Of a DNA stretch of 64,000 nucleotides, positions 5,276 through 60,621 are shown one piece after another (the stretch's first letter is position 1; the number at the start of each line of letters is the position of its first letter). A program made the translations under genes and the position numbers. The DNA comes from Candidatus Omnitrophota bacterium (GTDB taxonomy: Bacteria > Omnitrophota > Gorgyraeia > Zapsychrales > Fredricksoniimonadaceae): the NCBI GenBank assembly GCA_002753465.1, contig PEAF01000004.1, positions 474-64,473 of the forward strand, given 5' to 3'. The notes under the pieces were generated by a model that saw only the letters and a program-made list of their open reading frames with translations, made no database searches and was not told where the DNA came from.

Positions 5276-5977
5276 ATGAAAGCAGATTTTCTTATTCTTT
5301 GCGGCGGGCTTGGAACGCGCTTGCGTGCCGTGACGGGCGATACACCCAAGGTGATGGCTGAGGTGCAGGGCGAGCCATTCCTTGATTTTTTGTTACGTTA
5401 TCTCATCAAACAGGGGGCCCAGCGTATTATTTTATGCGCTGGGTATAAGGCCGAATCGATCGCGGCGCATTACAAGGCCAAGTTCAGTCAGGTCGAGATC
5501 CATTTTTCGGTCGAGAATGAGCCGCTGGGCACGGGGGGTGCGCTTAAGAATGCGGCATCCTTCATTAAAAATGAGCATGTGTTCGCGCTCAACGGCGATT
5601 GTTTTACGCCGGTTAAATACGCCAAACTTCTGGCGTTCCATCAAAAACATCAGGCTCACGCCACTTTGACGGCCGTCCGTGTTGACGGCAATAAAGATTT
5701 CGGGACCATTGTCAGCAACGATAAGCTTGAGATCGTGGCGTTCAAAGAGAAATTCGTGACGGATGAAGTGCAGTACATCAATGCCGGCGTTTATTGTTTC
5801 AATAAAGATGTTTTTGATCTCATGCCGACAGGGAAGTTCTCGATCGAGTATAATTTCTTTCCGAAGATGATCGGTAAGAAGTTTATGTCCTATCAAGTGG
5901 ACGCGCCTTTTATTGATATTGGGACGCCAGAACGTTTTGAGTGGGCCAAGGCGCATTTGAATGAGATGCTTGATTGA
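5276..5977 (+). CDS. hddC: Sugar-1-phosphate nucleotidyltransferase, heptose-1-phosphate guanylyltransferase-like
   Basis: LILCGGLGTRLR G-loop. Starts 1 nt after the hddA stop. Confidence 0.65.
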   Translation: MKADFLILCGGLGTRLRAVTGDTPKVMAEVQGEPFLDFLLRYLIKQGAQRIILCAGYKAESIAAHYKAKFSQVEIHFSVENEPLGTGGALKNAASFIKNEHVFALNGDCFTPVKYAKLLAFHQKHQAHATLTAVRVDGNKDFGTIVSNDKLEIVAFKEKFVTDEVQYINAGVYCFNKDVFDLMPTGKFSIEYNFFPKMIGKKFMSYQVDAPFIDIGTPERFEWAKAHLNEMLD

Positions 5978-6120
5978 TTCGCCAAGCTATAGCCCTTGTT
6001 CATGCCCTGTGGCTCAGACAGTCCTCGCGCATCCATTTTTGAAGAATGTTGAATGAGGAAGGAAAATGGATGGCTGCGGAACTCGCCCTTAGGGCATGAA
6101 CGGCGGGCTGCTTGTCGAAT
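5978..6120 (+). repeat. Structured intergenic repeat, copy 1 (long imperfect hairpin)
   Basis: ttcgccaagctatagcccttgttcatgccctgtggctcagacagtcctcgcgcatcc...ggatggctgcggaactcgcccttagggcatgaacggcgggctgcttgtcgaat. Near-identical to 50254-50400 and 53523-53676. Confidence 0.9.
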
Positions 6121-6139
6121 CTTAAATGCAGGTTAAAAT

Positions 6140-7309
6140 ATGAAAATACAAGAAGGCCAGGAGTCAAAAAAGGCGGGGTACAGGGTTCCTTTCGGGACCG
6201 TGTCGATCACGCCCAAAGCGCGCAAACTTATTAACGAAGCCCTGGATACCGGTTGGGTGACCAAGGGGAAATATGTTAAAGAGTTCGAGGATAAGTTCGC
6301 GGCTCTTTTCGGTGTAAAACATGGCATTGCTGTTTCAAGCGGAACGGATGCCGATGCTTTGGCTTGTGCGGCTTTATATGATCTTGGCGCTCGGCGCGGC
6401 GATGAGGTCCTGGTGCCCTCGCTGTCTTTCATAGCGACGGGCAATTCTGTATTTCAGGCTGGCTTGACACCGGTCTTTGTGGATGTTGATCGCACAACGC
6501 TTAACATTGATCCACTTAAGATCGAGGCGAAGATCACACCCAGGACCCGCGCGATCATGCCGGTCCATTTGATGGGTAAACCTGCGGATATGAACGCCGT
6601 AAGGATGATCGCGAAAAAACATAATCTGCGCATTATTGAAGATGCCGCTGAGGCACATGGAGCAGAGTATCATGGCGAGAAAGTCGGGGCCATGGGGGAT
6701 ATGGCCTGTTTCAGCCTTTATGCCGCGCATATTGTTACGACCATTGAAGGCGGCATGATCCTGACGGATTCCGACAAGATCGCTGAGGTTCTTAAGTCAC
6801 TACGCAATCACGGGATGACCGGAAAATTTACCTTTGAACGCATCGGGTTTTCGGCTAAAATGAACGAACTCGAAGCGGCTGTTGGGCTTGGGAACATTGA
6901 TATTTTCAATGATATCCTTTCTAAACGTCGCAGGAACATGTTGTACCTGATCGAAAAGTTCAGAAAATTCAGCAAGTTTTTTATCACACTGACAGAAGAC
7001 AGCCACGAAAAGCTCGGGCCGCATGCATTTTCGATCATTGTCCGTGAAGGTGCCGGCTTTAGTAAAGATGACCTCGTGGCGCATTTAGAAGCGAATGGGG
7101 TCGATTCGCGCAATCTGTTTTATTCCATGCCGACGCAATGTCCTAGTTATGCTTTTTTAGGGTATAAACTGGGGGATTTCCCCGAGGCTGAATTTTGCAG
7201 TGATCACGGGACCCATATCGGCATTCATCAGGATATCGGGATAGAGCAGTTGGATCATGTTGTAGTTGTAGTTGAGGGGTTTCTTAAGAAAAAAGGAGTT
7301 TCCTATTAA
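6140..7309 (+). CDS. DegT/DnrJ/EryC1 family PLP/PMP enzyme; His replaces the active-site Lys, as in ColD/E1-type sugar 3-dehydratases
   Basis: YVKEFEDKFAALFGVKHGIAVSSGTDA, GDEVLVPSLSF and EDAAEAHGA. FSLYAAHIVTTIEGG aligns to recalled ColD FSSFYSHHIATMEGG, with His where aminotransferases carry Lys. Confidence 0.75.
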   Translation: MKIQEGQESKKAGYRVPFGTVSITPKARKLINEALDTGWVTKGKYVKEFEDKFAALFGVKHGIAVSSGTDADALACAALYDLGARRGDEVLVPSLSFIATGNSVFQAGLTPVFVDVDRTTLNIDPLKIEAKITPRTRAIMPVHLMGKPADMNAVRMIAKKHNLRIIEDAAEAHGAEYHGEKVGAMGDMACFSLYAAHIVTTIEGGMILTDSDKIAEVLKSLRNHGMTGKFTFERIGFSAKMNELEAAVGLGNIDIFNDILSKRRRNMLYLIEKFRKFSKFFITLTEDSHEKLGPHAFSIIVREGAGFSKDDLVAHLEANGVDSRNLFYSMPTQCPSYAFLGYKLGDFPEAEFCSDHGTHIGIHQDIGIEQLDHVVVVVEGFLKKKGVSY

Positions 7310-7322
7310 AGATTATTTAAGA

Positions 7323-9101
7323 ATGATCTATCTGGCGCGCCGGAACTTCCAGTATCTTATCGGAGGTGTCGTGGCCATGCTGGTTTCCACGGTTTTTGAA
7401 GGGGCGCAGTTGGGAGCCATTGTTCCTTTGGCCGACCGTATTTTTAACAACAAACTTATCGTTCTTCCTAAAGGTATGCCGCCGTTTGTGATGGAGTGGG
7501 CGGAAAAGCTTAATGACCTTGACCGCAACCAGATCTTTTACGGCATTATCTTCATTATTCCGCTTTTTATTTTATTGAAGGGTGTTTGTTTTTATATTCA
7601 GGGCTACATGATGAATCAGGTGGCCCAGAAGTCCGTTGCTGATACGCGCGGCGATCTGTTCCGTAAATACCAGCAATTATCCCTGGATTTTTATAGCCAG
7701 AAGCGTCAGGGTGAACTCATGTCGCGCATCACGAATGATGCCGGGTTTATCGGCACCGCGATCTCGTATGGTTTGACGGATGTTGTCTATCAATCGTTCC
7801 TGGCTGTGATGTTCACTGTCATTGCGATCACGATCAGCTGGAAAATGGTGCTGATCGTGCTGGTTGTTTTTCCGCTGAATGCGCTGATGATCTATAGCAT
7901 CGGCAAAACGATCAAAAAGCAGTCGTTGTACTCCCAGGAGTCGATGGCTGACCTTAACTCCATACTTGCAGAAACAAATCAGGGCGTATCGATCGTTAAG
8001 GCTTTTTCACGTGAAGAGCATGAGATCGGGCGTTTTGATGAGATCAATAAGCGTTATTACAAATCTGTCGTTAAAGGTATCCGCCGTAACTTATTAATGA
8101 CGCCTGTCGCGGAACTGCTGGCCGCGATAGCGGTCGTTATCGTTTTCTGGGTGGGTGGAAAACAGGTCATGAAAGGCGATATGTCTTTTGGTGTTTTCCT
8201 GCTTTTCCTCACAGCCTTGATGAGCATTTTGCGTCCTATCAAAAAGTTGACCGCGGTGTATGGCATTATCCAGCAGGCGATTGCCTCAACGCAGCGGCTT
8301 TATGATATTTTCGACTGGAAGCCGTCTATCGTTGATTCACTGGCGGCAGTCGTGGCGCACCCTCCCGAGAAATATATCCGCTTTCATGATGTATCGTTCA
8401 AGTATGAGAAGAAGGAAGAACGCTGGATCATCAAGAATTTCTCGCATGATTTCGAGATCGGCAAGACCACGGCTTTGGTTGGTCCGACAGGTTGCGGTAA
8501 AACGACGATCATGAACATGATCTTGCGTTTCTATGATGCGGACAAGGGGGTCGTCCTTTTTGACGATCAGGATATCAAACAGGTCACGATCAATTCATTG
8601 CGCCAGCATGCCGGCCTGGTGACACAGGACATGATCCTTTTCAATGAGACCATCCGCGAGAATCTGCGTTATGGAAAACTGGATGCGACCGATCAGGAAC
8701 TTCATGAGGCAGCCCGTCAGGCACTGGCGTCCGAGTTCATTGACCGTTTGCCTAATGGATTGGATACCGTCGTGGGTGATCGCGGGTTCAAACTTTCCGG
8801 CGGACAGAAACAGCGCTTATGTATTGCGCGCGCTATTTTAAAGAATCCCAAGATCCTTCTTCTGGATGAAGCCACTTCAGCGCTGGATGCTGAAAGTGAA
8901 TATTTCGTTCAGCAGGCGCTGGATAATCTGATGAAGAACCGCACGGTCATTGTGATCGCGCACCGGCTTTCGACCATTCGCCACGCATCATGCATCATTG
9001 TGATGGATCAGGGGCGTGTGGTGCAAAAAGGCGAGCATGATGATCTTATGAAATCTTCGGAGCTTTACGCACGCCTGGCGAGTTATCATTTCAATCAATG
9101 A
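7323..9101 (+). CDS. ABC exporter, fused permease/ATPase (MsbA-like)
   Basis: Six-TM N-terminal half. Walker A GPTGCGKTT, signature LSGGQKQRLCIARA, Walker B ILLLDEATSALD. The track start at 7272 is TTG and overlaps the upstream gene; ATG 7323 is preferred. Confidence 0.8.
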   Translation: MIYLARRNFQYLIGGVVAMLVSTVFEGAQLGAIVPLADRIFNNKLIVLPKGMPPFVMEWAEKLNDLDRNQIFYGIIFIIPLFILLKGVCFYIQGYMMNQVAQKSVADTRGDLFRKYQQLSLDFYSQKRQGELMSRITNDAGFIGTAISYGLTDVVYQSFLAVMFTVIAITISWKMVLIVLVVFPLNALMIYSIGKTIKKQSLYSQESMADLNSILAETNQGVSIVKAFSREEHEIGRFDEINKRYYKSVVKGIRRNLLMTPVAELLAAIAVVIVFWVGGKQVMKGDMSFGVFLLFLTALMSILRPIKKLTAVYGIIQQAIASTQRLYDIFDWKPSIVDSLAAVVAHPPEKYIRFHDVSFKYEKKEERWIIKNFSHDFEIGKTTALVGPTGCGKTTIMNMILRFYDADKGVVLFDDQDIKQVTINSLRQHAGLVTQDMILFNETIRENLRYGKLDATDQELHEAARQALASEFIDRLPNGLDTVVGDRGFKLSGGQKQRLCIARAILKNPKILLLDEATSALDAESEYFVQQALDNLMKNRTVIVIAHRLSTIRHASCIIVMDQGRVVQKGEHDDLMKSSELYARLASYHFNQ

Positions 9102-46630: not shown

Positions 46631-46641
46631 GAGTGAATCCA

Positions 46642-48402
46642 ATGTCGACGGTAACTAAGATCAAAGCCATTATCAACGGGATCCCTGTCGAGGTCGATCA
46701 GGGCGCCACGATCCTTGAGGCGGCGCATAAAGCCCAGGTCAATATCCCGACACTTTGCAAACATCCTGACCTGGTTGCTTCGGCAGGTTGCGGTATTTGC
46801 ATTGTGAAGATCAAGAATAATCGCAAGATGCTGCGCGCATGTTGTACGCCTCTTGAGGAAGGCATGGATATCATGACCCATGACCCCGAGATCGTACAGA
46901 CCCGCCGTACGGTGCTTGAGCTCATCCTTTCCAATCACCCGACGGATTGCCTGGTGTGCGGACGCAACAACGACTGCGAATTGCAGAAGATCTGTGCTGA
47001 ATTCGGTATCCGTGATGACCGTTTTGAGCGTATCCTTCCTAATATCCCGGTTGATAGTTCGACCAAGACGATCATTTTGGAGCCGAGAAAATGCATCAAG
47101 TGCAGCCGGTGCATCGATGCGTGCCAGAACATGCAGGATGTATGGGCGCTTTCATATGTGGATCGCGGGTTTAAAACGCGCATGGCACCTTCCGGCGACA
47201 TCAAGCTGGCGGAATCCCCGTGCGTGCGTTGCGGCCAGTGTGCGGCGCATTGCCCGACGGGCGCTATTTGCGAGAATGACGAGACCCAGAAGGTGTGGCA
47301 GCTCTTGCAGGATCCGGATAAGCATTGCGTGGTGCAGATCGCACCCGCGGTGCGTGTGGCGGTAGGTGAAGGGTTTGGTTATCCTGTCGGAACGAATTTG
47401 ACCAAGAAGCTTTATGCCTTGTTGCGCCGCCTTGGTTTCAAGGCCGTATTTGATACTAACTTCGGCGCTGATTTGACGATCATGGAAGAAGGCACGGAAT
47501 TTGTAGAGCGTTTTGTCAACAAAAAGGGCCCTTTACCGCTGATCACCAGCTGCTGCCCGGCGTGGGTTGATTATCTTGAGAAGTATTATGGTGATACCAT
47601 TAGCCTTTTCTCATCGGCTAAGAGTCCGCATGAGATGGTGGGTGCTTTGGCCAAGACGTATTACGCGCAGAAAAAGAATATCGATCCTTCCAAGATGAAG
47701 GTCATTTCCATTATGCCGTGCACGGCCAAGAAGTATGAGATCTCACGTACCGAAGAAATGTCAGCTTCCGGTTTTCAGGATGTTGACGTATCGTTGACGA
47801 CCCGTGAGCTCATTCGCATGATCAAACAGGCTGGTATTGACTTCAAGCAGCTTCCTGATGAAGATGCGGATCTTATGCTGGGTGATTATGCAGGGGCAGG
47901 CACGATCTTTGGTGCGACGGGTGGTGTTATGGAAGCGGCTCTGCGTACAGCTTACTTTGCCATTACGGGTGAGAATTTGAAGGATGTGAATTTCACGGCT
48001 GTGCGTGGTTTACAGGGTGTTAAAGAAACGACGATCAATATCAAGGGTACGGATGTTAAGATCGCGGTGGCGCATGGTTTGAAGAATGTAAAATATGTTA
48101 TGGATAAGGTACGCGATGCGCTTAAGAACAATCAGCCGCCTCCGTATCATTTCATTGAGGTTATGGCATGTCCCGGCGGTTGTGTTGGCGGCGGCGGTCA
48201 GCCGTATATGGTGACCGATGATATCCGCAAGCAGCGCGCGAAGGGTCTTTATGAAGAGGACGCCAACCTGCCGCATCGCTGTTCGCATGAGAATCCGTAT
48301 GTTGCACAATTATACAAGGATTTTCTGGAGAAGCCGTTGTCACATAAGTCGCACAAGCTTCTTCATACGAAGTACGTTTCACGTCCGTTGTATACGCGCT
48401 AA
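46642..48402 (+). CDS. hydA: [FeFe]-hydrogenase catalytic subunit, multi-cluster (group A, bifurcating-type architecture)
   Basis: N-terminal 2Fe-2S and 4Fe-4S Cys motifs. H-cluster motifs TSCCPAW, MPCTAKKYE and EVMACPGGCVGGGGQP. Confidence 0.9.
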   Translation: MSTVTKIKAIINGIPVEVDQGATILEAAHKAQVNIPTLCKHPDLVASAGCGICIVKIKNNRKMLRACCTPLEEGMDIMTHDPEIVQTRRTVLELILSNHPTDCLVCGRNNDCELQKICAEFGIRDDRFERILPNIPVDSSTKTIILEPRKCIKCSRCIDACQNMQDVWALSYVDRGFKTRMAPSGDIKLAESPCVRCGQCAAHCPTGAICENDETQKVWQLLQDPDKHCVVQIAPAVRVAVGEGFGYPVGTNLTKKLYALLRRLGFKAVFDTNFGADLTIMEEGTEFVERFVNKKGPLPLITSCCPAWVDYLEKYYGDTISLFSSAKSPHEMVGALAKTYYAQKKNIDPSKMKVISIMPCTAKKYEISRTEEMSASGFQDVDVSLTTRELIRMIKQAGIDFKQLPDEDADLMLGDYAGAGTIFGATGGVMEAALRTAYFAITGENLKDVNFTAVRGLQGVKETTINIKGTDVKIAVAHGLKNVKYVMDKVRDALKNNQPPPYHFIEVMACPGGCVGGGGQPYMVTDDIRKQRAKGLYEEDANLPHRCSHENPYVAQLYKDFLEKPLSHKSHKLLHTKYVSRPLYTR

Positions 48403-48882: not shown

Positions 48883-50253
48883 ATGGAATTTCGCACAGAA
48901 CATGACATGTTGGGTGAGAAGAATATTCCGCTGAAAGCTTATTGGGGCATTCATACGCAACGTGCATTGGAGAATTTCCCTTTGTATTCTGGTGTTGTGT
49001 CGTTGCCACTGATGAAAGCCATGGCCATGGTCAAGAAAGCCTGTGCGCTGGCGAATAAGGACTTGGGATATTTAACACCTGAGAAAGCTTCAGTCGTTAT
49101 AAGTGTGTGCGATGAGATCATGGCTGGCAAGTTGAATGACCAGTTTCCCCTGGATGCACTGCAGGGCGGGGCGGGGACATCGACGAACATGAATTTGAAT
49201 GAGGTCATCGCCAATCGCGGCCTCGAGATCATGGGGCGCGCCAGGGGTGATTATGCGGCGCTCCATCCTTTGGAGGATGCGAATCTACATCAATCGACCA
49301 ATGATGTTTATCCGACGGCGCTGAAGGTGGCTTTAATCCTGGGTGTTAGGTCTTTAAGCGAGACAACAGCGCTGCTGCAAGGTGCTTTTCAGCGTAAGGA
49401 AAAAGAATTCGCCGGTATCATCAAGTTGGGGCGTACCGAGATGCAGGATGCCGTGCCGATCACCTTAGGCGCTGAGTTTTCCGGCATGGCTGAAGCGGTT
49501 TCGAGAGACCGCTGGAGAACGTTTAAATGTGAGGAGCGCTTACGGGTGGTTAATATTGGCGGCACAGCCGTGGGGACAGGGCTTGGTGCGCCGCGTGATT
49601 ACATTTTTCTGGTCATTGAGAAGTTGCGTGAGGTTACAGGGCTTGGTGTTTGCCGGGCTGAGAATATGATGGGCGATACGGCGCATGCGGATACGTTCGT
49701 TGAGGTGTCAGGGATACTCAAGGCGCATGCCGTCAATATCCTGAAGATCTCGAATGACTTGCGCTTGATGAATATGCTGGGTGAAATTGTGTTGCCATCG
49801 GTGCAGGCTGGCTCATCGATCATGCCGGGCAAAGTTAATCCTGTGATATTAGAGGCAGTGTCGCAGGCCGGCCTTAAAGTGATCGCGCAGGACGGTCTTG
49901 TAACGCAAGCGGCATCGCGCGGCACCGGGCAGATCATTGAATTCATGCCGCTATTGGCGGATGCGCTTTTAGGGGCGGTTGATCTTTTGGTCAAGGCGGA
50001 TGGGATGCTGACAGCACATATCGATGGGATCAAAGCGGATGAAGATCGCTGCCGGCATTATGTTGACAGAAGCCGGACGCTCATTACGGCGTTTGTTCCT
50101 GTGGTGGGGTATGACCGTTGTCAGGCCTTGCTGAAAGAATTTGATGATATTAAGGAAGATAATTTGCGTGCGTTCCTTAACCGGAGGTTGGGTGTGGAGA
50201 TTGTCAATAAAACATTGGCGCCGCATAATCTTGTCGGATTAGGACATAGATAA
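48883..50253 (+). CDS. aspA: Aspartate ammonia-lyase (class II fumarase/aspartase family)
   Basis: TEHDMLGEKNIPLKAYWGIHTQRALENFP and signature GSSIMPGKVNP. Confidence 0.8.
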   Translation: MEFRTEHDMLGEKNIPLKAYWGIHTQRALENFPLYSGVVSLPLMKAMAMVKKACALANKDLGYLTPEKASVVISVCDEIMAGKLNDQFPLDALQGGAGTSTNMNLNEVIANRGLEIMGRARGDYAALHPLEDANLHQSTNDVYPTALKVALILGVRSLSETTALLQGAFQRKEKEFAGIIKLGRTEMQDAVPITLGAEFSGMAEAVSRDRWRTFKCEERLRVVNIGGTAVGTGLGAPRDYIFLVIEKLREVTGLGVCRAENMMGDTAHADTFVEVSGILKAHAVNILKISNDLRLMNMLGEIVLPSVQAGSSIMPGKVNPVILEAVSQAGLKVIAQDGLVTQAASRGTGQIIEFMPLLADALLGAVDLLVKADGMLTAHIDGIKADEDRCRHYVDRSRTLITAFVPVVGYDRCQALLKEFDDIKEDNLRAFLNRRLGVEIVNKTLAPHNLVGLGHR

Positions 50254-50400
50254 TGATTCGCCAAGCTTTGGCCCTCGTTCATGCCCTGTGGCTCAGACAG
50301 TCCTCGCGCATCCGCTTTTGAAGGATGTTGAATGAGGAAGGAACGCGGATGGCTGCGGAACTCGCCCTTAGGGCATTGAACTTCGGGCCGCTTGTTGAAT
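50254..50400 (+). repeat. Structured intergenic repeat, copy 2
   Basis: tgattcgccaagctttggccctcgttcatgccctgtggctcagacagtcctcgcgcatccgc...gcggatggctgcggaactcgcccttagggcattgaacttcgggccgcttgttgaat. Confidence 0.9.
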
Positions 50401-50414
50401 GAAATACGCGAGAC

Positions 50415-50459
50415 GCCTTCGAAAGACGACAAGGGCATCACGACGGCGGCAGGACCCGC
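50415..50459. repeat. Inverted-repeat arm B (partner 48558-48602)
   Basis: gccttcgaaagacgacaagggcatcacgacggcggcaggacccgc. Sits in a ~66-nt insert that copy 2 carries relative to copy 3. Confidence 0.85.
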
Positions 50460-50489
50460 GAAGCGACTGTGAAGGATGAGAGGAATATT

Positions 50490-51749
50490 ATGGATAAAAC
50501 ACCAAAATCATTAAGGCTTCAGATCGGCATTTTCGGCCGGACCAATGTGGGCAAGTCAAGTTTGCTTAACATGGTCGCGGGGCAGGACGTGGCCATTACA
50601 TCCGCTGTGGCTGGGACGACGACAGATGTGGTGGAGAAGGCCATGGAACTGCTGCCATTAGGCCCCGTGATGTTCCTGGATACGGCAGGGCTTGATGATG
50701 ATTCTCTCCTGGGGGAAAAGCGTATTGAGCGCACACGGCGCGCGCTGGACCGCTGTGATATTGCTTTGTTAGTCGTTGAGCCCGGGATCTGGGGGGTATG
50801 CGAAGTGCAGTTTGCTGAAGAGCTTAAGGCTAAAAAGAAGCCACTGATCATTGTTATTAATAAGGCGGACATAAAGTCGATCGCTGATGATTTCATGCAA
50901 GTTCTTCAAGCGATAACAGATAAGGTTATCGTTGGTTCAAGCGTCGTCACGGCCCAGCGCGAAGCATTTTTACAGGCGTTCAAGCTTTGCCTGATCCAGA
51001 CCTGTCCGGAGGATTTTTTAAGACCGCCGACGCTATTGGGGGATCTTGTTCCCGCTGGTGGCGTGGCCGTTCTGGTCGTGCCGATCGATCTGCAGGCGCC
51101 GAAGGGGCGACTCATACTGCCGCAGGTGCAGGCGATCCGTGACGGACTGGATAATGATGCTGTTGTAGCGGTTGTTAAGGAGCGTGAGTATGCGGCGTTC
51201 CTGCAGAATCTAAAAAGTAAGCCTGCGGTGGTTGTGTGCGACTCACAGGTGGTAATGAAAATGGTCGCAGATACGCCCTTGGATGTGAAATGCACGACAT
51301 TCTCGATTCTTTTCGCGCGATACAAGGGCGATCTGGTCGAGATGGCCAAAGGTGCGGCGCATATTGAAGCGCTCAAACCGGGGGATAAGGTCCTGATCGC
51401 GGAAAGTTGTTCACATCATGCGGCTGAAGATGATATCGGACGGGTCAAGATCCCGCGCTGGCTGCGTCAATATGTCGGCGGTGATCTGGTGGTCGATCAT
51501 TTTGCGGGACGTGATTATCCCAAGGACCTTGAACAGTACAAACTTATTGTGCACTGCGGTTCGTGTATGTTAACGCGTGGTGAGATGTTGTGGCGTATCC
51601 ATCAGGCCAAAGAAAGAGGAGTACCGATTACAAATTATGGCGTCGGGATATCTTTAGTTCAGGGTGTATTGAAACGTGTTCTTTCGCCATTTCCGGCGGC
51701 GTTGGATGCGTTTGAAAAAGAAGTAGCTCAGGTAATTTCCGCGCTATAG
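50490..51749 (+). CDS. hydF: [FeFe]-hydrogenase maturation GTPase
   Basis: GRTNVGKSSLLN G1 motif. C-terminal cluster motif ESCSHH...HCGSC. The track start is GTG 50469. Confidence 0.9.
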   Translation: MDKTPKSLRLQIGIFGRTNVGKSSLLNMVAGQDVAITSAVAGTTTDVVEKAMELLPLGPVMFLDTAGLDDDSLLGEKRIERTRRALDRCDIALLVVEPGIWGVCEVQFAEELKAKKKPLIIVINKADIKSIADDFMQVLQAITDKVIVGSSVVTAQREAFLQAFKLCLIQTCPEDFLRPPTLLGDLVPAGGVAVLVVPIDLQAPKGRLILPQVQAIRDGLDNDAVVAVVKEREYAAFLQNLKSKPAVVVCDSQVVMKMVADTPLDVKCTTFSILFARYKGDLVEMAKGAAHIEALKPGDKVLIAESCSHHAAEDDIGRVKIPRWLRQYVGGDLVVDHFAGRDYPKDLEQYKLIVHCGSCMLTRGEMLWRIHQAKERGVPITNYGVGISLVQGVLKRVLSPFPAALDAFEKEVAQVISAL

Positions 51750-51844
51750 GCTTTGGCAAAGGATTCCGGCTCAGGAGCGCCCGTCCTTTTTGGGATGGAA
51801 ATGCGGGTGGAAGGACGTCCGCAATTCGCCGTCATCCTTTTGCC
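51749..51844 (+). repeat. Diverged fourth member of the structured repeat family
   Basis: ggcaaaggat..ccggctcag..gcgcccgtcc-tttttgggatggaaatgcgggtggaa-ggacgtccgc..aattcgcc..atccttttgcc. Same architecture, with the stems replaced by different complementary sequences. Confidence 0.65.
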
Positions 51845-51972
51845 TGCAGCCTGCGCGGATTAAACGCTTTCCTGATTTAAAGCTGAAGGCATGCCGCAGA
51901 TGCGAGTTTGGAAACCAAGCTTTCAACAATGTTCTTTAGAAAAAGCTGTTTCCACTGTCTGAGCAGCCAGGT

Positions 51973-53520
51973 ATGCCGAAAGCTTTAGAAATCAGGAAAG
52001 ATAAACAAGTTAGAGGTGGTCATATGAATAAAGCGACAGGATTGAATGGATGGGCTGGTCAGCGGATCAAGCCGGATCAGATAACGAAGTACATGGACCA
52101 GGGCCGTGATTTTATTAATGACGGCGATATTGAAGCTAAGCTCGCGGCGTTCTCGGGTGAGCCTGAACCGGCGCAGGTGCGCGCTATTCTGGCTAAATCT
52201 ATGGCCGTTAAGGACCTTTCGCTCGATGAGGTGGCGATCCTTATCAGGGTCAATGACAAGAAGATGCTTGAGGAAATGCGTCAGACCGCGTTGGCCCTCA
52301 AGATCAAGATCTATGACAATCGTATTGTGACCTTCGCGCCCTTTTATTTAGGTAATTATTGCGTGAACAGATGCGCGTATTGCGGGTTCAATAACGATAA
52401 TACGGCAGCGACACGCACAGTACTAGATACAGATGCTATCCGCCGGGAAATTGCGGTCCTCGCGGGAGAGATTGGGCACAAGCGCCTTATTGCGGTCTAT
52501 GGCGAGCATCCAAAGAATGATGTTGATTATGTGATCGAAAGCCTTAAAACGATCTATTCGGTCAAGGTCAAGACCAAGAACGGCACAGGAGCAATCCGAC
52601 GGGTCAATGTTAACGCACCTCCTTTTTCTATTGAGGACCTCAAGAAGATCAATGAGGCGGGCATCGGTACGTATCAGGTTTTTCAGGAGACCTATCATAA
52701 AGAGACCTATGCCAAGATGCATCCGGCAAATACGATCAAAGGCGATTATAACTGGCGCTTGTACAGCATGCATCGCGCCATGGAGGCGGGCATTGATGAT
52801 GTCGGTATCGGCGCGCTTTTTGGGCTTTATGACTGGCGTTTTGAACTGATGTCACTTGTTTGCCACACCCAGGCGCTTGAAAAGCGCATGGGCATTGGCG
52901 CGCATACGATCTCATTCCCGCGCGTGGTACCGGCGCTTAATTCCGTGATCACGCCAGACTGGCCGTATCTTGTTTCTGATGATGATTTTAAGAAGATCAT
53001 GATGATCATCCGTCTGGCCGTGCCTTACACCGGCATGATCGTGACGGCGCGCGAAAAGGCCGAGATACGTAACGAGGCTGTCTTGATGGGCATCACCCAG
53101 ATGGACGCATCATCGCGCATTGCTGTCGGTGGGTATTCTGATTGTGTGACCGCCCAGAAGGAGGACAAACAGCAGTTTATTTTGGGGGATACACGTTCTT
53201 TGGATGAACTTATCCGTGATCTGGCGCAGATGGGCTTTATCACATCTTTTTGCACCGCGGGCTATCGTTGCGGACGTACCGGCAAATGCATCATGGATCT
53301 TTTAAGAAGCGGCACCGAGGGGAAGTTCTGCAAGCTTAATGCCGTGCTCACATTTCAGGAATGGCTGGATGATTTTGCCACAGAGGACACACGACGCCTG
53401 GCGCAGCCGCTCATCGACCGTGAGGTCGCTGAGATCAAGGCCAAGAATCCGCAGACGCTGGATATCTTTATGAATTATTATGAGCGGGTGAAGAAGGGTG
53501 AGAGGGATCTTTATTTATAA
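51973..53520 (+). CDS. hydG: [FeFe]-hydrogenase maturation radical SAM tyrosine lyase
   Basis: CVNRCAYCGF (CX3CX2C) and a C-terminal Cys region FCTAGYRCGRTGKC..FC. Alternative ATG 52024 sits behind AGAGGTGG. Confidence 0.88.
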   Translation: MPKALEIRKDKQVRGGHMNKATGLNGWAGQRIKPDQITKYMDQGRDFINDGDIEAKLAAFSGEPEPAQVRAILAKSMAVKDLSLDEVAILIRVNDKKMLEEMRQTALALKIKIYDNRIVTFAPFYLGNYCVNRCAYCGFNNDNTAATRTVLDTDAIRREIAVLAGEIGHKRLIAVYGEHPKNDVDYVIESLKTIYSVKVKTKNGTGAIRRVNVNAPPFSIEDLKKINEAGIGTYQVFQETYHKETYAKMHPANTIKGDYNWRLYSMHRAMEAGIDDVGIGALFGLYDWRFELMSLVCHTQALEKRMGIGAHTISFPRVVPALNSVITPDWPYLVSDDDFKKIMMIIRLAVPYTGMIVTAREKAEIRNEAVLMGITQMDASSRIAVGGYSDCVTAQKEDKQQFILGDTRSLDELIRDLAQMGFITSFCTAGYRCGRTGKCIMDLLRSGTEGKFCKLNAVLTFQEWLDDFATEDTRRLAQPLIDREVAEIKAKNPQTLDIFMNYYERVKKGERDLYL

Positions 53521-53522
53521 CA

Positions 53523-53676
53523 ATCTCGACAAGCTTTGGCCCTCGTTCATGCCCTGTGGCTCAGACAGTCCTCGCGCATCCGTTTCTTCAGGATTTTGAG
53601 GGCGGAGGAAGAAAACGGATGGCTGTGGAACTCGCCCTTAGGGCATTGAACTTCGGGCCGCTTGTTGGCTGTGAAG
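53523..53676 (+). repeat. Structured intergenic repeat, copy 3
   Basis: ctcgacaagctttggccctcgttcatgccctgtggctcagacagtcctcgcgcatccgtttcttc...gaagaaaacggatggctgtggaactcgcccttagggcattgaacttcgggccgcttgttggc. Confidence 0.9.
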
Positions 53677-53727
53677 GATGTAAGGAGGCATGCTGATGGC
53701 GAACAATTGGCGTGGAGGAATGTGGTT

Positions 53728-54720
53728 ATGAATCGTGATGAGATCATTGAGAATCTGATGACAGACAGACCGGCGGCGCTGTTTGGCGAGGCGGACCGCG
53801 TGCGCCGTTTGCATGTGGGCAATGCCGTGCATCTGCGCGGGCTCATTGAATTCTCCAATGTCTGCGGACGTGATTGCATTTATTGTGGTATACGCCGTTC
53901 AAATCATGGTGTGGCCCGGTACAAGATGTCCACGGGCGAGATCTTTGACGCCGCAGCTTACGCGGTGGGCCTGGGGTTTAAAAGTTTGGTTCTTCAGTCG
54001 GGTGAGAGCGGTCAATATTCAACTGATGAGATGGTTGCGCTTATCGGCCGTATCAAGCAAGCGTTCGGTGTAGCGATCACGCTTTCCATGGGAGAGAAAA
54101 CGCGCGTGGAATATGCTGCGCTTAGGCAGGCTGGTGCTGACCGTTACCTTTTGCGCTTTGAAACATCCTGTGAGAAGCTTTTTATTAAGCTCAAACCAGA
54201 TTCAGTTTACGCCGATCGGATCCAATGCCTGAGCTGGCTGCGTGAGGTGGGGTTTCAGGTCGGGTCTGGCATTATGGTCGGGCTTCCCGGGCAGACTGAA
54301 GAGATGATCGCCGATGATATTCTTCTCATGCGTGAGCTTGATCTGGACATGGTGGGTTTTGGCCCTTTTATTCCTGACCCTAATACGCCGCTAAAAGGTG
54401 TCGGAGGCGGGTCACTGGGGCTTACGTTACGCACCTTGGCGCTTATCCGTATCGTGATGCGTAATGTGCACATCCCAGCTACCACGGCCATGGGAACGAT
54501 CGATCCTAATGGGCGCCAAAGAGCCCTCGAAGTGGGTGCGAATGTCTTGATGCCCAATGTTACCCCGACACGATACCGCGAAATGTACCAGCTCTATCCC
54601 AATAAGCCGGGGCTTAAGCAGGCGCCCAGTGATACGTTCGAGACCTTGCGCGCTTTGGTTCATTCGGTAGGGCGTACGGTCGCCACAGATCCCGGGCATA
54701 GCCTTAAACGGTCGGCGTAG
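53728..54720 (+). CDS. hydE: [FeFe]-hydrogenase maturation radical SAM enzyme
   Basis: HLRGLIEFSNVCGRDCIYCGIRR. GGAGGA 8 nt before ATG 53728. The track start, TTG 53662, lies inside the repeat. Confidence 0.88.
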   Translation: MNRDEIIENLMTDRPAALFGEADRVRRLHVGNAVHLRGLIEFSNVCGRDCIYCGIRRSNHGVARYKMSTGEIFDAAAYAVGLGFKSLVLQSGESGQYSTDEMVALIGRIKQAFGVAITLSMGEKTRVEYAALRQAGADRYLLRFETSCEKLFIKLKPDSVYADRIQCLSWLREVGFQVGSGIMVGLPGQTEEMIADDILLMRELDLDMVGFGPFIPDPNTPLKGVGGGSLGLTLRTLALIRIVMRNVHIPATTAMGTIDPNGRQRALEVGANVLMPNVTPTRYREMYQLYPNKPGLKQAPSDTFETLRALVHSVGRTVATDPGHSLKRSA

Positions 54721-60114: not shown

Positions 60115-60621
60115 ATGAGAAAGTTTGCTATGGGGGTTATTTTAGCCGCAGGGATGATCGTTACGTTTAATGCTTCTTCGGTGTTTGCCCAGGAGAATAC
60201 GGATGATAAATTTTCGTTCGGTAAGGTTGTAAGCGTCACGAGCGCATCGATCGTTGTTAAAGAATATGATTTTGCTAAAGATGCTGATGTCGAAATGACT
60301 TATGCGGTTACAGCCGAAACAGAGTTAGGTAATGTTAATGCCGTTACAGATCTCGTGGCCAATGACGATGTCGTCATTGATTATGCTGACAAAGACAGTA
60401 AGCGCGTTGTTTTGACGCTTGTTAAAGAAGATAAGGGTGCAGAAGCTCCGGCAGCTGGTGAAGCGACAGAGCAGGCTCCGGCAGCGCCGGCAGCAGAGGC
60501 AGCTCCTGCGGAGGCTGCAGCGCCGGCAGCAGAGGCAGCTCCTGCGGAGGCTGTAGCGCCCGAAGCCCCCGTAGCTCCTAAGGCGTCAGTTAACGCCGAA
60601 GCTGCTCCGGTTCAGCCATAA
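60115..60621 (+). CDS. Secreted protein with an Ala/Pro/Glu-rich C-terminal tail
   Basis: Signal peptide MRKFAMGVILAAGMIVTFNASSVFA. Tail APAAPAAEAAPAEAAAPAAEAAPAEAVAPEAP. Confidence 0.55.
   Translation: MRKFAMGVILAAGMIVTFNASSVFAQENTDDKFSFGKVVSVTSASIVVKEYDFAKDADVEMTYAVTAETELGNVNAVTDLVANDDVVIDYADKDSKRVVLTLVKEDKGAEAPAAGEATEQAPAAPAAEAAPAEAAAPAAEAAPAEAVAPEAPVAPKASVNAEAAPVQP
60481..60552 (+). repeat. Perfect 36-bp tandem duplication inside the Ala/Pro/Glu tail
   Basis: gcagcgccggcagcagaggcagctcctgcggaggct occurs twice back to back (60481-60516 and 60517-60552). Confidence 0.85.

Follow-up and report, generated by a model that had tools for sequence, protein, structure and literature searches.

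Hairpin repeats in the spacers of an Omnitrophota hydF-hydG-hydE operon carry a two-strand bubble motif shared among bacterial phyla

We analyzed a stretch of 64,000 nucleotides (nt) from a Candidatus Omnitrophota bacterium (assembly GCA_002753465.1, contig PEAF01000004.1, positions 474 to 64,473; hereafter "the window", numbered from its first letter), which contains a family of long hairpin-forming repeats, some of them in the spacers of the operon for maturation of the [FeFe] hydrogenase. Pfam matches give the gene order [FeFe] hydrogenase (46633-48402), Lyase_1, HydF, HydG, HydE and Rex. The host operon (48883-54720, + strand), which is context and not part of the repeat, comprises the genes for Lyase_1 (aspA-like; 48883-50253), HydF (50490-51749), HydG (52024-53520) and HydE (53729-54720), all on the + strand. 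The true starts of the HydF, HydG and HydE genes were set by alignment to relatives; open reading frames (ORFs) taken from the first possible start codon overextend the 5' ends (HydF from 50469 vs. 50490, HydG from 51973 vs. 52024 and HydE from 53662 vs. 53729). Because the true gene starts lie later, all three hyd spacers are longer than a list of ORFs suggests.

Three near-identical + strand copies of approx. 145 nt, reported in the original prediction and recovered here at the same places, constitute the longest family of direct repeats that a repeat finder detects in the 64-kb window. Copy 1 (5976-6121) occupies the spacer between a nucleotidyltransferase (hddC-like) gene and a DegT gene, and its first bases furnish the GA of the upstream gene's TGA stop codon. 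Copy 2 (50254-50400) starts 1 nt past the stop codon of the Lyase_1 gene, with the HydF start 89 nt downstream, and copy 3 (53523-53668) starts 2 nt past the HydG stop codon, with the HydE start 60 nt downstream; the distance from upstream stop codon to hairpin foot is 0 to 2 nt in all three. The flanking pairs proposed earlier (nucleotidyltransferase/DegT, Lyase_1/HydF and HydG/HydE) agree with the Pfam matches. Each copy forms a single long imperfect hairpin with a folding energy of -61 to -64 kcal/mol and a z-score of -3.3 to -5.2 compared to shuffled sequences (-64 kcal/mol and -5.2 for copy 1), as had been predicted, and the complementary strand of each copy folds nearly equally well (-60 to -61 kcal/mol). 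A 37-nt core is identical in the three copies, with 3 matches in the window vs. 0 in 100 shuffles. Independent support came from a covariance model that was built from 15 foreign metagenomic instances alone, with no window sequence, and that retrieves the window copies at E values around 1e-10 (copy 1, 45.5 bits, E 4e-10; copy 2, 45.8 bits, E 4e-10; copy 3, 43.3 bits, E 2e-9).

Copies 2 and 3, which are 3.3 kb apart, are closest to each other; the 52 nt of identity reported for them and the one-base difference (C/T, in the 3' arm) were both recovered. Such near identity at short distance is what would result if a spacer had recently undergone segmental duplication, with neither mobility nor function involved. 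However, the identity does not extend past the hairpin feet into the flanks, which are unrelated, further copies are found 44 kb away and in a different genome, and the core occurs in unrelated phyla; this distribution refutes a segmental duplication, which we consider hardly credible. The differences between copies that are compensated on the opposite arm are visible in the alignment, both as agccc/gggct vs. ggccc/gggcc and in the inner stem (catccatttt/aaaatggatg vs. catccgc/gcggatg vs. catccgttt/aaacggatg). No intrinsic terminator (GC-rich stem plus U-run) was found at any window copy, and the tails are not T-rich. No coding capacity was found in the element, as loop lengths are not multiples of 3, and small ORFs inside it were rejected because their frames differ among copies and the frame has an early stop in a full-length, near-identical copy found in another Omnitrophota metagenome-assembled genome (MAG; locus L003).

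No canonical copy is present in the hydF|hydG spacer (51750-52023). A scan of the window for the two-strand bubble described below yielded four candidates, i.e., copies 1 to 3 and a minus-strand match at 51904-51962, against a background of 0.03 candidates per shuffled window, and the covariance model matched the same region (51891-51975, 18.4 bits, E 0.008; next match E 2.2). This fourth copy (51876-51988, - strand; GCUG-C-UCAGACA-G-UGGAAAC...GUUUCCA-AACUC-G-CAUC) is diverged and inverted, and retains the bubble and remnants of the outer arm (CAUACCUGGCUG / GCGGCAU), with the inner helix swapped for UGGAAAC/GUUUCCA. Sequence comparison weakly points to a possible decayed relic on the + strand of the same spacer (51768-51836; GGCTCAGGAGCG ... 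CCGCAATTCGCC), for which the covariance model gave no match at E <= 10. The claim that the element occupies every spacer of the maturase cluster is loosely true, since all three hyd spacers are occupied but the hydF|hydG copy is inverted, diverged and non-canonical.

No other part of the element comes close to the internal loop of the hairpin in conservation or in breadth of occurrence. It is a two-strand motif, C-UCAGACA-GUCCUCGCGC opposite GCGCUGCGG-AACUC-G. Strand A, the 20-mer GGCUCAGACAGUCCUCGCGC, lies at 6011-6030 in copy 1 and is the same at 50290-50309 and 53558-53577; strand B, GCUGCGGAACUCGCC, lies at 6073-6087 in copy 1, is the same at 50352-50366 and recurs with a C to U change at 53622-53636 (all on the + strand). 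The core bubble, 5'-C-UCAGACA-3' opposite 5'-(A)AACUC-G-3', is placed between two helices, P-a and P-b, and the C located 5' of UCAGACA pairs with the G that follows GGAACUC. Helix P-a extends outward from this C-G pair and is free in both sequence and length, while P-b in the main class consists of GUCCUCGCGC / GCGCUGCGGAAC, with a U·C mismatch and two bulges, followed by arbitrary helices. Bubble-only variants, which keep C-UCAGACA-N and (A)AACUC-G, were found on a Ralstonia megaplasmid, at several metagenomic loci and as copy 4 of the window; the scan for these variants gave 0 matches in shuffled loci. In place of the usual P-b they carry GCCUCCCC/GGGGAGGC, GUCACAUC/GAUGUGA, CACGCGC/GCGCGUG or UGGAAAC/GUUUCCA; at least four other perfect helices thus stand in for P-b. 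The bubble is invariant and both helices covary.

The motif occurs in two arrangements. Type 1, the form present in the window, has a loop closing P-b and leaves P-a open. Type 2 is the reverse, with an open P-b and with P-a capped, in some cases by no more than 3-4 nt. Types 1 and 2 represent a true circular permutation. In both types, the two flanks of an instance are complementary to each other but not to the flanks of other instances (mean duplex energies, own vs. cross-paired flanks, of -23.9 vs. -8.9 kcal/mol for type 1 and -14.2 vs. -5.3 kcal/mol for type 2). Strands A and B are separated by anything from 5 to 85 nt, but pairing of the flanks is seen in every case. Since the two strands always face each other despite this variable distance, recognition would take place on a folded single strand rather than on duplex DNA.

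An exact search for the strand A 20-mer in a collection with one genome per species identified 11 loci, seven of which have strand B (with at most 1 mismatch) near strand A. These seven comprise the full-length copy of the Omnitrophota MAG already mentioned (L003), four loci in three Gammaproteobacteria MAGs, one in a Desulfobulbaceae MAG and one in a Thermodesulfobacteriota single-cell genome; of the other four loci, one (L001) is a recognizable variant without a matching strand B and three resemble chance matches. Among metagenome contigs, an 18-mer of strand A occurs at no fewer than 120 loci (i.e., at least 120). Among the matches listed, strand B was within range of strand A in 114 of 132 further occurrences, a placement expected by chance in about 1% of cases by our own estimate. 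Strand B was located 18-40 nt upstream of strand A in 73 of the 132 and 5-70 nt downstream, as in the window, in 41; one had a candidate strand B on both sides, and for the remaining 17 strand B was absent or the contig ended. The contigs that host the motif range from 35 to 74% GC, and the carriers include Omnitrophota, Pseudomonadota and Desulfobacterota. The bubble motif is hence kept letter-for-letter in at least three phyla, with unrelated surrounding helices.

Viral contigs contained 0 matches to strand A, and BLAST searches gave no match to the motif in E. coli genomes. In plasmids, BLAST searches did not find the main form, only a bubble-only variant on Ralstonia megaplasmids (GGGGAGGC-AAACUC-G...C-UCAGACA-GCCUCCCC), with 1-4 instances per megaplasmid in 128 Ralstonia records, e.g., at approx. 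302.9-303.1 kb of the Ralstonia pseudosolanacearum GMI1000 megaplasmid (NC_003296.1; L132, 1470-1530 and 1690-1750). As this organism is cultivable and well studied, it offers a handy experimental entry to the motif. In two proteobacterial loci, L011 (2660-3090) and L132 (1400-1760), hairpins formed by strands A and B are modules in nested palindromes of approx. 400 nt; each composite holds two differing A/B hairpins in inverted orientation, and the palindrome ends are hairpins of the CAAAGAAAG type. At type 2 loci (L015, L027, L104, L124 and similar ones), the hairpin lies between imperfect direct repeats of 13-15 nt with one conserved sequence, CCCTGCGCTGCTCGG; these repeats could belong to a larger element or represent a site-specific target.

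The same hyd cluster is present on contigs of four related Omnitrophota (L133, L134, L135/136 and L137; HydG 82-92% identical), and neither strand A nor strand B was found in the hyd cluster of any of the four. The hyd spacers of these relatives measure 0-68 nt or are otherwise filled. The hyd genes of L134 and L135 abut or overlap, leaving no spacer, and the spacer sequences of L137 differ from those of the window. In the closest relative, L133 (HydG 92% identical), the lyase|hydF and hydG|hydE spacers contain short perfect GTAG hairpins (GTAGAGACG...CGTCTCTAC; located at 5578-5606 and 8530-8557, with the forms GTAGAGACGAGGC-aat-GCCTCGTCTCTAC and GTAGAGACGTTGCG-CGCAACGTCTCTAC), which are unrelated to the window element and look like classical repetitive extragenic palindromic (REP) sequences, and the hydF|hydG region (approx. 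6957-6978) contains a GC hairpin. The comparison with these relatives therefore suggests that the spacers collect different palindromic elements in different strains, none of which is required.

These data bear directly on the proposal, made in the original prediction, that the hairpins represent a cis-regulatory RNA module selected for the processing, stability or translation of the hydF-hydG-hydE mRNAs. Such a module would fit the observations that, of the four to five copies in the window, three to four are located in the three hyd spacers, that the hairpins abut stop codons and that L133 also has hairpins in the same spacers. However, the L133 hairpins are unrelated in sequence, and the otherwise identical cluster of L134 and L135 has neither spacers nor hairpins. 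Copy 1 and the L003 copy, which follows a type III glutamine synthetase gene, are located in unrelated operons, copy 4 is inverted, and no link to hyd genes is apparent at some 115 other loci. Clustering of copies in the window is equally well explained by local transposition or duplication, as copies 2 and 3 are mutually closest. No copies were found next to hyd genes in the four relatives, and an all-versus-all comparison of ORFs within 2.5 kb of approx. 115 instances revealed no recurrent gene family beside the motif other than generic ABC ATPases, as would be expected if the gene for a partner protein were single-copy. We consider a module of this kind improbable, as the evidence from the relatives largely refutes it; the idea that maturation of the [FeFe] hydrogenase has an RNA switch of its own at this locus loses support, and the element is probably a passenger in the hyd operon. 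A further suggestion, that the GGA triplets of the apical loop form a CsrA-like binding site, does not hold beyond the lineage either; the GGA-rich apical loop is confined to the Omnitrophota lineage of the window, and elsewhere the hairpins that carry the core have unrelated apical parts or loops of 4-13 nt.

We also evaluated whether the orientation and the substitution pattern of the element carry signatures of RNA or of DNA. Among 37 well-flanked instances, 14 were sense and 9 antisense in co-directional spacers, 12 lay between convergent genes and 2 between divergent genes (greedy longest-ORF gene model, which reproduces the genes of the window; cruder versions agree). Inverted pairs in single spacers were observed at L002, L011, L069 and L132. 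Arm mismatches of the G·U type, counted over 57 distinct instances, numbered 34 on the motif strand vs. 39 on the complement (p = 0.64), and both of these classes were outnumbered by 111 mismatches of the transversion type, over which they show hardly any enrichment. Predicted G·U pairs numbered 273 on the motif strand vs. 301 on the complement, which was slightly stabler on average. The compensated arm differences had been put forward as an argument for selection on structure; given this lack of G·U asymmetry they do not serve as such, since compensation is expected of any inverted-repeat element and is on its own no sign of RNA selection. With placement at gene 3' ends, no clear transcriptional orientation and no wobble signature, the copies have the look of palindromic mobile DNA.

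A different explanation is that the bubble represents the core of a widespread structured RNA, perhaps a module that binds protein or a small ribozyme with self-cleaving activity, for which the hairpins would serve as scaffolds, mobility being secondary. The invariant bubble nucleotides flanked by two covarying helices are consistent with such an RNA, as is the occurrence of both circular permutations (73 vs. 41 among the matches listed), which are known for the hammerhead and twister ribozymes. The variable spacing between strands A and B excludes recognition of duplex DNA, copies located inside operons are transcribed, and type 1 instances in co-directional spacers show a sense lean (7 sense vs. 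1 antisense, with 3 of the 7 from the window). On the other hand, the excess of G·U over A·C that an RNA should show is missing, type 2 instances are unoriented (7 vs. 8 in co-directional spacers), inverted pairs occur, as does an inverted copy within the same operon, close relatives dispense with the element, and searches of short stretches with a limit as lax as E <= 10 gave no match to any ribozyme or motif model of Rfam. We thus regard a structured RNA of this description as rather unlikely. Judged from sequence, the motif resembles the permuted ribozymes (hammerhead types I-III, twister P1/P3/P5) in its small conserved core, its helices of arbitrary sequence, either of which can be closed, and its multi-copy occurrence scattered across phyla and metagenomes; it differs from them in having no match to a Rfam ribozyme and no orientation or G·U signature of RNA. 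A broader formulation, to which we give a little more weight although it remains tentative, is that the bubble constitutes an undescribed pan-bacterial structured motif with an activity of its own, i.e., a self-cleaving or protein-recruiting RNA or a new substrate for mobilization of single-stranded DNA (ssDNA). In the latter case, the two permutations may derive from a dumbbell-shaped circular intermediate that would be opened in either of its terminal loops.

Another type of ssDNA substrate, the single-strand recombination site of integrons (attC), shares several features with the element, namely a size of approx. 145 nt, a position directly after an ORF, a gene-like orientation in the window, conservation of structure over sequence, unpaired bases and recognition as a folded single strand (which for our element is a proposal); the 3' end of copy 2 (GTTGAAT) even fits the attC consensus GTTRRRY. 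The other 3' ends (GTCGAAT and GTTGGCT) and the 5' ends (ATTCGCC and ATCTCGA) do not provide the corresponding R''/R' core sites, with no RYYYAAC present; conservation is central instead of terminal, both orientations occur, no integrase or cassette context is apparent, and the flanking genes form a syntenic core operon rather than cassettes. An attC-type site is thus very improbable. Within the lineage of the window, the alignment indicates element ends of the form (T)GATYCGNCAAGC ... GCTTGNYGRRY, and the ends of other carriers of the core are entirely different.

With moderate confidence, we favor the explanation that a mobile palindromic element of the REP/REPIN/MITE type (MITE, miniature inverted-repeat transposable element), itself non-autonomous, gave rise to the window copies by insertion, and that these copies represent lineage-specific carriers of a more widely distributed two-strand core. 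An element of this type had been named as a fallback in the original prediction and is now the best supported of the options listed there; presence/absence polymorphism, named there among the signs that would favor such an element, was observed in the four relatives. The bubble would be the recognition determinant for a mobilizing or processing protein, which would act on the folded single strand, either as ssDNA during transposition or replication or as RNA. Because the 3' ends of genes and the intercistronic spacers tolerate insertions, copies would build up in these places. In the mRNA of the hyd operon, a hairpin of about -60 kcal/mol would be present 0-2 nt past the stop codon, where it may block a 3'-exonuclease or hinder terminating ribosomes. 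The analogy here is to E. coli, where REP sequences in mRNAs act as exonuclease barriers and hinder ribosomes near stop codons. We infer that any such effect would be a side effect and not the reason for the element's presence, and the effect on the hyd mRNA may be incidental.

Like the REP, REPIN and BIME sequences of E. coli, Pseudomonas and Stenotrophomonas, which are mobilized by RAYT proteins of the Y1 type, the element is an extragenic imperfect palindrome found at gene 3' ends and between cistrons, occurs in both orientations and as inverted pairs or mosaics (L002, L011, L132), is non-coding and varies in presence between relatives. Unlike REP sequences, copies 1-4 have no GTAG at either foot, the hairpin measures 145 nt as compared to 20-40 nt, and what is conserved is a non-complementary bubble, not the stem, in two circular permutations; the core is identical across phyla, whereas REP sequences are species-specific. 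Similarities extend to the Correia/NEMIS (Neisseria), ERIC/IRU (enterobacteria) and RUP/BOX (Streptococcus) repeats, i.e., intergenic sequences of 100-200 nt that form long hairpins in co-transcribed mRNA, and insertion polymorphism among close relatives is shared with bacterial MITE-type repeats. Conversely, the Correia, ERIC and RUP families have terminal inverted repeats and target-site duplications, while the termini of our element vary and no duplication was seen. We know of none among the Correia/NEMIS, ERIC/IRU and RUP/BOX repeats that is shared across phyla.

Several observations weigh against a mobile element of this type. No direct repeat that would represent a target-site duplication was found beside the four full copies, the empty sites of the relatives being too diverged to align, and the element ends are not sharply defined in the alignment. 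No transposase or RAYT-like partner was identified in the 64 kb and among the neighbors of the motif, and no genome-scale search was made. With 3-4 copies observed in the 64-kb window and a single one in another genome, high copy number is unproven. Conservation of approx. 35 nt letter-perfect across phyla is stricter than is usual for REP or MITE sequences, which are normally species-specific, and a biochemical function may reside in the core itself. In addition, the orientation statistics rest on crude longest-ORF heuristics, and the sense lean of type 1 fits a role as RNA. A core that is identical across phyla in unrelated helices and in both permutations also sets the motif apart from ordinary REPs and MITEs; a new and widespread family would be defined if this core proved to be a small functional RNA or the handle of a mobilization system, and the two permuted minimal forms, each of approx. 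45 nt, are small enough for direct biochemistry.

Neither Rfam 15 nor the searchable literature contains the core, which is in this sense uncatalogued, in keeping with the earlier remark that the element was not recognized as a named RNA family. Scored at gathering thresholds, the window and 8 genome loci gave 0 matches to Rfam 15 models, which include those for the hammerhead, twister, twister-sister, pistol, hatchet, hairpin and HDV-like ribozymes, 6S RNA, SRP RNA and riboswitches. At relaxed thresholds (E <= 10), nothing matched the motif in 14 loci and nothing matched in L124, with generic microRNA-hairpin noise in L106. Literature searches with 12-16-mers of both strands (as DNA and as RNA) returned only unrelated primers, and concept searches returned nothing relevant. 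Among known motifs, we considered kink-turns, the sarcin-ricin loop, domain IV of the signal recognition particle (SRP) RNA, sigma-54 promoters, inverted repeats of Tn3 and insertion sequences (IS), loop A of the hairpin ribozyme (which shares GACAGUCCU) and a 23S segment (GAACUCGCUGUG); all were dismissed because the shared letters vary in the bubble-only variants or because the Rfam models do not match.

A match of the glutamine riboswitch model to copy 2 (50274-50349; 18.4 bits vs. a gathering score of 35, E 0.13) was rejected as chance, as it is driven by CGUUCA and GGAAGGAACGCG in copy 2 only and depends on AACGCG, which the other copies lack; beside it, the location of the L003 copy downstream of a glutamine synthetase III gene is a curious observation. 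One contig with a type 1 motif, L049, also carries a bona fide ZMP/ZTP riboswitch (1056-1140, - strand; 58 bits, gathering score 39). Elsewhere in the window, a tandem array of four 36-nt units, of which two are identical, occupies positions 60442-60588 and probably codes for a repeat rich in Ala, Pro and Glu.

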